DNA from: a virus
IMG/VR virus record: IMGVR_UViG_3300036985_003303
Span: 1 to 64,000 of that record
Strand: one strand, 5' to 3'
Length of the DNA stretch: 64,000 bases
Position numbers and translations under genes: made by a program. Shown here piece by piece: positions 24,482-49,461 of this stretch; the stretch's first letter is position 1, and the number at the start of each line of letters is the position of its first letter. The notes under the pieces are model-generated. The model worked only from the letters and a program-made list of their open reading frames with translations, was not told where the DNA came from and did not search any database.

Positions 24482-24553
24482 AGGTATAGGAGGGAGTCGA
24501 ACCCTCACACATAGCGTTGTTGCTACAGCTCTGCCAGTTGAGCTTACTATACC
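24482..24553 (-). ncRNA. tRNA-like element / pseudo-tRNA with non-canonical anticodon arm
   Basis: Acceptor GGTATAG/CTATACC, D-arm AGCTC-AACTGGCA-GAGCT, stem GTAGC/GCTAT with 6-nt loop AACAAC, T-arm GAGGG-TTCGACT-CCCTC; no CCA. Confidence 0.75.
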
Positions 24554-26858: not shown

Positions 26859-27059
26859 TTAAAAGTCAACTCCTTCAGTGTATCCACACTTAGCGAGAAA
26901 TGGAGCTTCGCATGCTACTACACACTTACCCTTTTCCCATTTGGCTAGGAATTGTACTTTGTGTGTTAGTGCTTGCAGGCGAAAGTCATAGTATTCTCTG
27001 CTTGTCATTGTACATTCTACAATGAAGTTTTCTGTGTAATCTGTTTTGTTTTGTGACAT
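26859..27059 (-). CDS. Small hypothetical protein
   Basis: 66-aa ORF. Confidence 0.6.
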   Translation of the reverse strand: MSQNKTDYTENFIVECTMTSREYYDFRLQALTHKVQFLAKWEKGKCVVACEAPFLAKCGYTEGVDF

Positions 27060-27121
27060 TTTGTGATAGTATTTAATGAATAATTAGACACTTCCCCTTC
27101 CTGATGATAGTAACTTACCAA

Positions 27122-27435
27122 TTTTTTGGGAGTGGTGTGAATGTGGGACTGTAATTTCGCGGAAGTCTGAAACGAAGAGTTTCAGCCCACGGAGTGTTGC
27201 CCGCGGCAGCGAGCCAAGGTATAGCCAGGCGCGTAGGATCTGCAAGATCCTGTTAGCCGACACCATGCATACCATGGGCTAGTAATCCCCAGGAGTCTGA
27301 ACCTGGGTTCAGCCCTCGGAGAGCAAGGGTTGCCCAACGGCAGGGCGAAGCCCTTATAAGAGTTGATCGGGAAGAAGCCCAGGCGGCAGAAACCGGAGGT
27401 TTCAATGAGCCGACACAATGCTTTTTTGGGAGTGG
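27122..27435. other. GC-rich structured non-coding island bracketed by a 14-nt direct repeat
   Basis: About 55% GC by hand count (166/300), TTTTTTGGGAGTGG at 27122 and 27422, many hairpins, internal 130-nt-period duplication. Confidence 0.7.
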
Positions 27436-27456
27436 GCGGGTGTGGTGATAGTAACC

Positions 27457-27498
27457 AAAAAAATAATGCCTGTCACTCCGAAGAGCAACAGGCGTTAT
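27457..27498 (-). terminator. cUUCGg-loop terminator followed by TTACTATCAC
   Basis: ATAATGCCTGT/ACAGGCGTTAT stem, CGAA loop on plus strand, A-run; GTGATAGTAA at 27445-27454. Confidence 0.8.
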
Positions 27499-27502
27499 CT
27501 TA

Positions 27503-28171
27503 TTATCGCTTGCGTAATTCAGCAAGCATTGCACGAGCATCAGCAACACGGTCTTCACGGTCAAGGTTACGAATGTCCCTAACTTTCAACTTGGAAGCCT
27601 TTGCAATGCGAAGCATTTCAAGGTTGTCCTTAGCCTTGTCAAGTTTCTCCAAAGCAAGCATTGCCTGAATTGGTTCGCAGAATGACTTAGCAATAGTACC
27701 ACGCGAAGGGTTTTCTTGATTGTTGTTAGGAACCAAATAAGAACCGTTTGTAGACAACAACTTGAATGAGTCTGCACCGTGGTAGTGGAACGGAACCATG
27801 TCGCCTAACTTGATTGAACCTGAAGCGAAGCAATCAGATAAAGCAAGGTCGCCTGCAATTACAACTTTCTTATCTCCGAACTCGAAGTGAAATGAGTAAC
27901 CGTCTGAATGAACAAGTTCTAAGTCCATAGTATAGACAACAGTACCGTTAAGCGCATTGCGAGGTGTAATACCATTAGCAACTAACTCAACAGGAGCGAC
28001 AGCAGGAGCTGATTCAAGACTGATAGACAAACTTGTTGCTAAAGCAATAAGAGTGTCAACGTCCATAGCTTGCAAAGACTTTTTAGTAATACTGTTAGCT
28101 TTGCAAATAGCTTTTTGAGCAAAGATTGTTTCAACAACGTCTGCTTGAGTAAATGTGGAAGTAGTTTCCAT
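27503..28171 (-). CDS. Early hypothetical protein
   Basis: 222-aa ORF with its own upstream motif and terminator. Confidence 0.75.
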   Translation of the reverse strand: METTSTFTQADVVETIFAQKAICKANSITKKSLQAMDVDTLIALATSLSISLESAPAVAPVELVANGITPRNALNGTVVYTMDLELVHSDGYSFHFEFGDKKVVIAGDLALSDCFASGSIKLGDMVPFHYHGADSFKLLSTNGSYLVPNNNQENPSRGTIAKSFCEPIQAMLALEKLDKAKDNLEMLRIAKASKLKVRDIRNLDREDRVADARAMLAELRKR

Positions 28172-28295
28172 AATAAATTTTGCGTTTTATACCCGCACGG
28201 TTTTAAAAAAGGATAACACATTTATCTGTTGGCTGTGTAGACACCAATGCTTTAGCAAACTACGAAGAGTAAGACAGCCCGTAAGGGAAAAAAGC

Positions 28296-28317
28296 ACCGA
28301 AGGGGTGAATTTACATT
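28296..28317 (-). promoter_or_regulatory. 22-nt early motif, copy 1
   Basis: Plus strand ACCGAAGGGGTGAATTTACATT. Confidence 0.6.
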
Positions 28318-28472
28318 TGAGGCTGAGTACTGGTGTGTGCGAACCGCGTAGTGCCGAAGAATGAGGCTGCTCGCGGTGAGCAAGAGAGAAAGATAGAAAG
28401 AGCGCGCGCAGCGCACCGTTTGAGTGAATGATTGGGAGCTGTTGTGAATACATTTGAGGTGGGAGTGATAGT

Positions 28473-28507
28473 AAAAAAACAGTGGTATCCCCGAAGGGAC
28501 ACCATGT
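28473..28507 (-). terminator. cUUCGg-loop terminator followed by TTACTATCAC
   Basis: TGGT-A-TCCC-CGAA-GGGA-C-ACCA; GTGATAGTAA at 28465-28474. Confidence 0.8.
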
Positions 28508-47844: not shown

Positions 47845-49461
47845 ATGAGTACACCAGTTTTAAATAATGGGATGTTCCTTCGGGACAACTATTACACAGC
47901 AAGCTCTCATGTGGATTCTTACCACTTGATGAATTTGATGAAAGACACGCAACCAGATGACTTAGGACCAATTGAACTTTGGGCGCAAGTTAAAAAGTTG
48001 GAGATGCCTTTGTATCAAATGTCTTCTTTTAACGGAAAGAATGTTATTGAGGTAAACCACCCAAGAGGTGAATACAAGTGGTCAACACCTGTATCTGAAG
48101 AACTTCCTTTCATTATGGAAGATCTTGATCCATCAAACACTATCAAAGGCGTAGATGGTACTCCGTTCAAAATCAAATTGAACAAGCGTGTATTTGGACA
48201 TGGTGACATCATCACTTATGACAAATTCAATGGAAAAGAACTTTATATCACAGATGAAGACATCTTGGATATGGGTGACGGATATATCTATACAGTTCAA
48301 ATGCCGAACAACGATTCAGCTGCAACTTTTGATAACCGTTTCTTGACAAACAACACTTACTTCTTCCGTGTAGGTTCTGCGCGTGGTGAGTACGGTGAGC
48401 GTTACTCAGATCTTTCTATGACTCACACAACTCGTGAGTTCTACAACTATGTTGGTAATGCAGATGCACACGTTCACTATACAATTTCATCTAAAGTGAA
48501 ATTGATGGAGAAAGGTGGTATGCAAGCTGACGGTTCAATTCCTGTAACTGAAATTTGGAAAAACTTTGATACGTCAATGGATCCATCTATCAATACATTG
48601 GAAGGAATGGTTGCTGCTAAAGGACAAGGTTATGTGAAAAAAGCAATGGACAATGGAAACTTGGTTCGTTCTTTCATCACTAAGTTGGAAGCAGCTCACC
48701 TTTCCAAAATTGCTTATGATATTGAAACTTACCTTATGTGGGGTAAAGGTGGACGTATCAAGCAAGATGGTCCAGATGACCTTCGTTTGTCAGTTGGTTT
48801 GTGGAAACAATTAGACTTGTCTTACAAGCATGTTTACAACAAATCTGATTTCCGTCTTGACATCTTCCGTTCTGAGATTTTCAACTTCTACAATGGTAAA
48901 GTTGATTTCCAAGGACCAGATCCAAAACGTGAATTGATTGTTCAAACTGGAATGGGTGGTATGCGTATTATCAATGAAGCAATCAAGCGTGAGGCTTTTG
49001 CATCAGGATTGGTAATGAACGCAAAAGAATTGGAAGCAGTAAAAGGTTCAGGAATGGACTTGTCTTACGGTTTCTCTTTCACAAGCTACACAATTCCTTT
49101 CTTGGCAAATGTGAAGTTTGTTTTGAACCCTGCGTTTGACAACTTACAAAACAATGAGATTGAAAACCCAATCATTGATGGTTTCCGTTTGTCTTCTTAC
49201 TCATTTATCATCTTTGATATTACTGAGAATGGTCAAGACAATATCAAATTGTTGAAATGTGCTTGGAACAAGGATCTTGTTTGGAGATATGTAAATGGTT
49301 CTATGGACTATATGGGACGTACTCAAGGGTTCGCTTCATCTGGTAACTTCAATGGATACCAAATCTACATGACGCAAGCAATGCCTGCAATCAAAGTAGA
49401 AGATCCTACTAAAGTGTTGAAAATTGTTATGAGAAACCCAATCACGGGAGGTTCATTATAA
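47845..49461 (+). CDS. Major capsid protein
   Basis: 538 aa, strongly biased codon usage, canonical position, followed by a terminator. Confidence 0.8.
   Translation: MSTPVLNNGMFLRDNYYTASSHVDSYHLMNLMKDTQPDDLGPIELWAQVKKLEMPLYQMSSFNGKNVIEVNHPRGEYKWSTPVSEELPFIMEDLDPSNTIKGVDGTPFKIKLNKRVFGHGDIITYDKFNGKELYITDEDILDMGDGYIYTVQMPNNDSAATFDNRFLTNNTYFFRVGSARGEYGERYSDLSMTHTTREFYNYVGNADAHVHYTISSKVKLMEKGGMQADGSIPVTEIWKNFDTSMDPSINTLEGMVAAKGQGYVKKAMDNGNLVRSFITKLEAAHLSKIAYDIETYLMWGKGGRIKQDGPDDLRLSVGLWKQLDLSYKHVYNKSDFRLDIFRSEIFNFYNGKVDFQGPDPKRELIVQTGMGGMRIINEAIKREAFASGLVMNAKELEAVKGSGMDLSYGFSFTSYTIPFLANVKFVLNPAFDNLQNNEIENPIIDGFRLSSYSFIIFDITENGQDNIKLLKCAWNKDLVWRYVNGSMDYMGRTQGFASSGNFNGYQIYMTQAMPAIKVEDPTKVLKIVMRNPITGGSL

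Follow-up and report, generated by a model that had tools for sequence, protein, structure and literature searches.

A modular chain of covarying hairpins, possibly a new noncoding RNA, beside a small conserved gene of freshwater and sediment crAss-like phages

ToxI-type repeats, phage pseudo-ToxI and RNA anti-CRISPRs are tandem structured phage RNA units whose copy number varies among close relatives. The CsrB/RsmZ sponge RNAs are chains of short hairpins with GGA in loops and linkers and with a variable number of units, while GOLLD and ROOL are phage-borne, GC-rich, multi-hairpin RNAs of unassigned function. At the level of DNA, phage N4 has promoter hairpins with loops that are three nucleotides (nt) long and purine-centred. 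The virion RNA polymerase (RNAP) of N4 is reported to use a hairpin promoter after its extrusion by supercoiling (PMC13434306). Here we describe an element with likenesses to each of these systems in the crAss-like phage of IMG/VR record IMGVR_UViG_3300036985_003303 (117,346 bp), the first 64 kb of which, hereafter the window, is the stretch of DNA analysed. The element occupies positions 27102-27455 and fills the gap between genes for a protein of 66 amino acids (aa; 26859-27059, minus strand) and one of 222 aa (27503-28171, minus strand). It forms a GC-rich island (54% GC vs about 35% in the remaining window), as had been claimed in an earlier examination of the letters alone (the sequence-only reading). 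We regard it tentatively, at somewhat below an even chance, as the gene of a previously undescribed modular and highly structured noncoding RNA found in one lineage of freshwater and sediment crAss-like phages.

The resemblance to the sponge RNAs lies in the chain of short hairpins, the GGA in loops and linkers and the variable number of units. The CsrB/RsmZ loop is ANGGAN, whereas the GGA of the element sits in a 3-nt loop closed by C-G, and the X motif and other conserved blocks of the element (described below) have no CsrB/RsmZ counterpart, with no similarity by sequence or by model. CsrA, the partner of these RNAs, is absent from the phage genome in a PF02599 search; a control search of 14 well-known genomes found it in three (E. 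coli, B. subtilis and T. maritima), and to our knowledge the expected Bacteroidota hosts generally lack it. The element shares with ToxI and RNA anti-CRISPR systems the tandem structured units and their shifts in copy number between relatives. ToxI-type repeats are about 34-40 nt long and lie upstream of a ToxN-like gene in the same orientation, whereas the units of the element are composite and about 130 nt long, with no ToxN-like or Cas gene near it.

GOLLD and ROOL are far longer than the element. A comparison with Rfam, proposed by the sequence-only reading and carried out against release 15 (4227 models, taken to include the GOLLD, ROOL and boxB families), returned no family at the gathering threshold; with permissive filters the best scores were 12.9-15.8 bits against thresholds of 34-100 (E 0.64-4.9), and a weak match to a CRISPR repeat model stood at chance level (E = 2.2). 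The GAAGA pentaloop of the element is identical to that of lambda nutL boxB; it is swapped for GUA, CUGG or CUUG in relatives, and hence carries no specific signal. The element thus matches no catalogued RNA family and most likely represents a new family of phage-borne structured noncoding RNA.

Closer to the present phage, crAss-like phage phi14:2 makes abundant early-region noncoding RNAs without assigned function (10.1101/2020.03.07.982082). They resemble the element in occupying long intergenic stretches among crAss-like phage early genes, and differ from it in lacking sequence similarity, in giving no match to our covariance model R1 and in running in the sense direction. One of the two, a 'long noncoding RNA' reported for phi14:2 (NC_021806, our L066; 4031-4500, g005-g006) is called as a transfer-messenger RNA by ARAGORN, with the tag GSSVQKLAMVA.

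With the N4 hairpin promoters the element has in common short hairpins, 3-nt purine loops, a position on the template strand of early genes and a packaged polymerase that needs single-stranded DNA. Its loops on the plus strand include C-GGA-G, C-GTA-G and C-GAA-G, the GGA hairpin having 3 bp in most copies and 5-6 bp in the homologue L033. N4, in contrast, has one hairpin of 5-7 bp per promoter at a fixed distance from the start, whereas the element has 8-12 hairpins over 250-430 nt, conserved unpaired motifs and a presence in RNA libraries. The polymerases are also unrelated, that of the present phage being of the two-barrel DFDID type and that of N4 a T7-like single-subunit enzyme.

Modular architecture and conservation of the element

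The element is a chain of modules, of which the window version has two A, one B and one D. Module A comprises, in order, the 13-nt X motif ATGGGAYWGTAAT, often with GCATAC on its 5' side, a linker ending in GGAG, a P1 hairpin of 6-8 bp, the dinucleotide CC and P2, a 3-bp mini-hairpin with an invariant GGA loop. The linker GGAG is found in most copies, the exceptions being GGAA in the first module A of the window (A1) and GGGATA in A1 of L010. Module A1 (27163-27196, plus strand) is preceded by X motif copy 1, ATGTGGGACTGTAAT (27141-27155, plus strand), of the ATGGGAYWGTAAT type that precedes each module A in homologues, and consists of P1 CTGAAAC-GAAGA-GTTTCAG (27167-27185), CC and P2 CAC-GGA-GTG (27188-27196). 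Module A2 (27291-27323, plus strand) follows X motif copy 2 with its 5' flank, GCATAC-CATGGGCTAGTAAT (27267-27286, plus strand), which is conserved in homologues, and consists of AGGAG, P1 CTGAAC-CTGG-GTTCAG (27297-27312), CC and P2 CTC-GGA-GAG (27315-27323). The block TTCAGCCC(A/T)CGGAG is repeated at 27181 and 27308, and modules A1 and A2 score 50.2 and 54.9 bits with R1. A covariance model of module A found two copies in the phage genome, both in the element and both on the plus strand.

Modules B (27224-27268, plus strand) and D (27378-27421, plus strand) align column for column, with different inner hairpins (AGGATCT/AGATCCT vs GAAACC/GGTTTC), and D is, as its sequence indicates, a duplicate of B. 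In module B, P4 (GGC 27228-30/GCC 27256-58) encloses H5, TAGGATCT-GCA-AGATCCTG (27234-27252), and is followed by AGCCGACACCATGC; in module D, P4' (GGC 27382-84/GCC 27409-11) encloses H6, GAAACC-GGA-GGTTTC (27389-27403), and is followed by AGCCGACACAATGC. The GGA loop of H6 also occurs in several homologues, the block AGCCGACACNATGC ends both modules, and AGCCGACAC(C/A)ATGC is repeated at 27255 and 27408. Between these modules lie hairpin P3a, TGCC-CGC-GGCA (27198-27208, plus strand), which varies among homologues and has a longer alternative pairing GCCCGC/GCGAGC with one C-A mismatch, and a segment at 27331-27362 (plus strand) made up of P3b (TGCC-CAAC-GGCA), H4 (GGGC-GAA-GCCC, 27343-27353) and the conserved block CCCTTATAAGAG.

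The outer edges are marked by a boundary motif TGATGATAGTAAC (27102-27114, plus strand), which resembles the X motif and reads GTTACTATCATCA on the minus strand, where it precedes the 66-aa ATG by about 45 nt, and by a second boundary motif TGGTGATAGTAAC (27443-27455, plus strand), which on the minus strand gives TTACTATCAC directly after a terminator and within which a sigma-70-like -10 (TACTAT) is called on that strand. Inside these edges, an exact 14-mer pair, TTTTTTGGGAGTGG, lies at 27122-27135, before X motif copy 1, and at 27422-27435 (both plus strand). In the closest relatives the second repeat copy is followed by a third X motif and a module E of about 70 nt, both of which the window lacks. 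The sequence-only reading had listed exact repeats 300 nt apart, a motif at both outer edges, a two-copy hairpin module (27164-27208 and 27294-27342), a third GAAAC/GTTTC hairpin, the GGGC-GAA-GCCC hairpin and the repeated AGCCGACAC(C/A)ATGC block, and all are present. The framing by exact repeats is a peculiarity of the window's lineage, TTTTTTGGGAGTGG being absent from the distant homologues L004, L010, L034, L040 and others. As observations in their own right, TGATGATAGTAA (27102-27113, plus strand) reads as four in-frame stop codons, and most X motifs (27141-27155, 27273-27286) can be read as a minimal open reading frame (ORF), NUG-GGN-NNN-UAA or NUG-GGN-UAG-UAA, on which we do not build.

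Covariation gives the strongest structural support. In the alignment of P1 and P2 (A4; 19 module copies, 18 of them distinct) all of the 180 cells (100%) are paired and five of the ten pairs are changed on both sides, a result equalled by none of 500 shuffles, while slid controls gave at most 48% pairing. In the alignment of B/D hairpins (A6, 13 copies), 95.6% of cells are paired and six of seven pairs are changed on both sides. P4 changes from GGC/GCC to GCC/GGC in relatives, and H4 from GGGC/GCCC to GGAC/GTCC in L050. The short hairpins are therefore kept by compensatory change while loops and whole hairpins are exchanged, and P3, H4 with CCCTTATAAGAG and the 3' module E are gained and lost between relatives. 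This supports the proposal of the sequence-only reading that the structure is under selection for shape, and the homologues carry the compensatory changes for which it had suggested looking. The comparison of folding energy with shuffles on both strands, which it had also suggested, was borne out in part: across 12 homologues, with RNA and with DNA parameters, energies were moderately better than those of shuffles, and about equal on the two strands. Since the energies are modest and about equal on both strands, the support for structure comes from the covariation. RNAalifold on a MAFFT alignment was tried as a strand test, gave the two strands similar scores (-127 vs -123 kcal/mol) and was left unused, as the short helices were mis-registered. 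Pairings of GGCC with GGCC, ATAGTA with TACYAT and ACTGTA with TACAGT all failed, as did an 11-nt receptor-like reading, each in at least one homologue.

Searches with blastn and megablast against 50,697 phage records returned no similar sequence. Relatives were found in IMG/VR through flanking-protein searches and DNA patterns, and many more through one metagenome scan, giving about 14 distinct homologues on viral and metagenome contigs from freshwater, lake and sediment samples. All of them are found at one and the same locus, with a homologue of the 66-aa gene as immediate neighbour, and in all of them the start TGATGATAGTA(A/G) is invariant, mostly as TGATGATAGTAAC; two lineages differ in its last base. 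When 185,579 bacterial and archaeal genomes were scanned, 13 chance hits within coding sequence appeared, and neither a homologue nor a host sequence for the element to mimic was found. Of the hits of a loose DNA pattern in viral contigs, 12 were due to chance and lay in a coding region of an AT-rich, unrelated phage; the true homologues among them were already known (L004-L007 and L016, the last equal to the L010 contig). Three metagenome contigs (L028, L042 and L043) end within or just before the element, and such breaks may reflect module variation among co-occurring strains.

Compared with the closest relative, the element core is about 98% identical, against about 91% for the DNA of the 66-aa gene and 88% for the 222-aa protein, so that the core is better conserved than the adjacent genes. 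This relative also has a further module of about 70 nt, and 2 nt are inserted in the loop of its H6 hairpin. ORFs of 63-103 aa overlap the island, and a conserved protein among them would have spoken against the sequence-only reading. None is kept open across homologues; each frame is interrupted by 2-nt indels or by the exchange of whole modules, which excludes these ORFs as conserved genes. The element is noncoding and confined to one locus.

Transcription, strand and competing explanations

Contigs from four RNA-library runs in three studies fall on the element. One of 855 nt runs across the terminator and links it with the 3' half of the 222-aa gene, and two from a single study have 27070 and 27075 as their first positions, at 11-16 nt from the 66-aa ATG (27059). 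These contigs are unstranded and cannot show transcription starts, and RNA libraries can contain DNA. In runs X16 and X20 contigs covered the element without its flanks, and in X15 the depth figure was higher for contigs on the element and the 222-aa gene than for those on the 66-aa gene; neither contig depth nor uncovered flanks were counted as evidence. We take the contigs as support, not proof, for transcription of the element in one direction or the other. The conserved unpaired motifs likewise favour an RNA or an RNA-protein particle. As to the suggestion in the sequence-only reading of either a structured noncoding RNA or a single-stranded DNA structure, the selected structure is upheld, the library contigs favour RNA, and the DNA role survives with the lower probability discussed below. 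Nothing points to a self-cleaving ribozyme. Readings of the element as a hammerhead core (CUGAUGA), as box C/D or as a CRISPR-repeat-like ATTGAAAC were dropped, as critical bases vary.

The choice of strand leans on G-U states, loop types and purine richness, all of which favour plus. Read on that strand, the outer pair of P1 is C-G (seven), U-G (seven) or U-A (four) and never C-A, and internal G-U pairs occur at independent sites, namely P1 of L050, two positions of the module E hairpin and the X hairpins of L029, L041 and L044. The plus-strand loops are GGA, GUA, GAA, GCA, GAAGA and CUUG, in keeping with an earlier remark that they are GNA/GNRA-like, which holds and agrees with the G-U evidence; the minus-strand loops would be UCC, UAC, UUC, UGC and UCUUC. 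The plus strand is also purine-rich in all 12 homologues (G 0.25-0.32 vs C 0.19-0.24). From these features we infer that the plus strand, antisense to the flanking genes, is the likelier of the two to fold and to be transcribed.

We hypothesise that this plus-strand RNA would diverge from the 66-aa gene, its 3' end lying at the hairpin that also serves as terminator of the converging 222-aa gene. This intrinsic terminator, a cUUCGg hairpin with an 11-bp stem and U7 (27468-27493, minus strand), has a U-rich run on its plus side as well, which is stronger in some homologues (five to six U in L029, L050 and L051, a U-rich stretch in L026). It may thus stop transcription from either direction, and its two U-rich sides fit two converging transcripts. 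The RNA would resemble beads on a string, a picture that follows from the lack of a consistent closing helix among homologues, with each module displaying the X motif, the linker GGAG and the GGA in its C-G closed triloop. With its two to four modules, one RNA would engage several copies of a single protein, for which a host factor or the phage's own 66-aa protein is a candidate, and X motif and GGA hairpin would be the recognition units of a multivalent decoy or scaffold RNA. The 5' part of the RNA might in addition overlap the leader of the 66-aa messenger RNA (mRNA) and act in cis. A sponge or decoy function is speculative and drawn by analogy; the rapid gain, loss and exchange of modules among relatives fits a decoy under changing selection.

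Several results weigh against a plus-strand noncoding RNA of this kind, and part of them speak for a transcript of the opposite strand. No global fold, consistent closing helix or long-range pairing was found among homologues, and no convincing plus-strand promoter in the window or in homologues. The 117-kb phage genome lacks CsrA (PF02599), and the 66-aa protein, a candidate sponge partner, matches no family and no fold. C-GNA-G triloops are best known as stabilisers of DNA rather than RNA hairpins. Folding z-scores fail to separate the strands, those of the minus strand being uniformly negative (-2.3 to -4.7), and a candidate P3 helix (option B) has a conserved C-A on plus that is a conserved U-G on minus. 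All left-arm protein genes lie on the minus strand, and the 855-nt contig, unbroken from the 222-aa gene via the terminator into the element, fits minus-strand co-transcription equally well as two converging transcripts. Together with TTACTATCAC following three terminators in gene orientation with its -10-like TACTAT, and with the sense direction of the early noncoding RNAs of phi14:2, the minus-strand z-scores, the option B helix, the gene orientation and this contig speak for an RNA made from the minus strand with its neighbours. Such an RNA would form a long structured tail at the 3' end of the 222-aa mRNA, serve as leader of the 66-aa operon, or do both, arising from read-through of the cUUCGg terminator or from a promoter containing TTACTATCAC, and would act in cis (as an exonuclease block, processing site or attenuator) or as an excised small RNA. 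We consider this possible but would wager against it. Seven of 18 P1 helices would then end in C-A, yet that pair covaries between C-G and U-A, and several well-supported helices would contain internal C-A mismatches. None of UCC, UAC, UUC, UGC and UCUUC is a known stable loop, whereas the minus-strand terminators of this phage use UUCG. The RNA would moreover be pyrimidine-rich, a strong terminator (11-bp stem, U7) precedes the element, and distant homologues lack TTACTATCAC on that side.

A role of the DNA itself is improbable in our estimate, though several circumstances invite it. Very stable C-GNA-G hairpins on the plus strand, the template strand of early genes, would be extruded under negative supercoiling and give the virion RNAP a single-stranded template; a priming site or an entry pause would be covered by the same explanation. 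The phage encodes a 4054-aa DFDID protein. Its phi14:2 homologue is reported to transcribe DNA efficiently when this is single-stranded or denatured and weakly at most when it is double-stranded, and to have no recognisable early promoter motif (10.1101/2020.03.07.982082). The hairpins form on the template strand just upstream of the 66-aa gene, GNA triloops with a C-G or T-A closing pair, among them the invariant C-GGA-G, make up about half of the loops, and there is the parallel with the supercoil-extruded N4 promoter (PMC13434306). A pure DNA-hairpin role would, however, leave the conserved unpaired motifs (X, GGAG, CCCTTATAAGAG and GCCGACAC) unexplained. It also sits poorly with an array of 8-12 hairpins over 250-430 nt against one hairpin per N4 promoter, with frequent G-T states, with coverage of the whole length of the element by RNA-library contigs, with a crAss-type RNAP unrelated to the T7-like N4 enzyme and with DNA-parameter folding that shows no plus-strand preference. 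The specific form of this idea, in which the extruded array is the landing site of the crAss-type virion RNAP and early transcription starts there just after entry, is a shade more doubtful still; if true, this would make the element the early promoter long sought in these phages, a solution that arose independently of that in N4.

Two further explanations keep to a smaller compass. A plus-strand RNA might act chiefly as a cis-antisense regulator, starting inside or next to the first codons of the 66-aa gene, with a 5' end that pairs with the 66-aa mRNA leader including GTTACTATCATCA and so controls translation or stability, the downstream modules mainly stabilising the RNA. The strict linkage of element and 66-aa gene in all homologues, the near invariance of the 13-mer between them amid varying surroundings and the two RNA-library contigs that begin 11-16 nt from the 66-aa ATG are in line with this. 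We judge it unlikely, as the conserved covarying modules are far more elaborate than a stabilising tail requires and the 66-aa protein, modelled as soluble beta-alpha-beta-beta-alpha, is unlike a small toxin. That the island is a functionless miniature mobile element or decaying insertion with target-site-like repeats, or else a short protein gene, is very improbable. The direct repeats at both edges and the overlapping 63-103 aa ORFs would fit, but the edge repeats are not conserved, every phage has a single orthologous locus with no second copy in the genome, the 185,579 bacterial and archaeal genomes scanned hold no copies, the core is conserved above the flanking genes, and 2-nt indels break the frames.

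Neighbouring genes and other features of the left arm

The phage has a Crassvirus major capsid protein at 47845-49461, the capsid being of crAss type. The DFDID motif of the virion RNAP lies at residue 2371 of a 4054-aa ORF (91708-103872 of the full record, beyond the window); this ORF is nearly twice as long as gp66 of phi14:2, and its neighbours are ORFs of 3237 and 2008 aa. The left arm (1-30 kb) holds replication and early genes, every protein gene being on the minus strand.

The 66-aa gene adjoins the element at every homologous locus. Its product falls into 22 protein clusters of 64-92% identity with 27 invariant residues, three of them Cys, and has no Pfam family, PHROG family or Atlas neighbour. 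The AlphaFold model (pLDDT 71.5), which has no fold match in the PDB at E <= 0.001, predicts a soluble beta-alpha-beta-beta-alpha fold, unlike that of a small toxin. From a TTACTATCAC-type copy at 27064-27072, transcription would start at the ATG of the gene and so give a leaderless mRNA. The 222-aa gene, which converges on the element, has a marginally similar positional counterpart in L005. Proteins neighbouring the element have no significant Pfam match (best E about 0.05, below the cut-off), and a PHROG search gave no match for either flanking protein.

The motif TGATAGTAA has nine copies on the plus strand of the genome and none on the minus strand, and is a recurrent motif of the left arm, not special to the element. 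Three copies (27446, 28466 and 28917 of the window), which read TTACTATCAC on the minus strand, directly follow cUUCGg terminators. On that strand these three copies contain the -10-like TACTAT and are followed by a C/A-rich, G-poor stretch.

A second noncoding, GC-richer stretch lies at 28172-28475, between a 111-aa gene and the 222-aa gene, with folding z-scores of -2.6 (plus) and -1.4 (minus) and with GUAA and GAAG loops on plus; read on minus, it may constitute a unit of about 165 nt that extends from TTACTATCAC (28474-28466) as far as a hairpin with U6 at about 28305-28283. The motif AATGTAAAT(T/C)(T/C)A occurs in three copies on the minus strand (28296, 28873 and 30136), each with a small hairpin, cUUCGg or CUGCGG, behind it. 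Two of these copies have an ATG 28-30 nt downstream, and the motif is similar to the Bacteroidota -7 box (TAnnTTTG), in an arrangement where the transcript would begin with a hairpin. Among the homologues, L004, L010 and L034 have a similar TAAATTTT box ahead of the 66-aa gene. Finally, the Rfam tRNA model gives 42.8 bits to a tRNA-like gene at 24482-24553 (minus strand), whose anticodon loop is 6 nt long and which is not called by ARAGORN.

Significance for crAss-like phages

crAss-like phages are among the most abundant viruses known, and their early programme is poorly understood. The element described here offers a short, concrete and covariation-supported family tied to one small conserved gene, and would be a new entry for catalogues of RNA families. 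It bears on whether crAss-like phages use RNA decoys, on the target of the 66-aa protein and on where their virion RNA polymerase starts.

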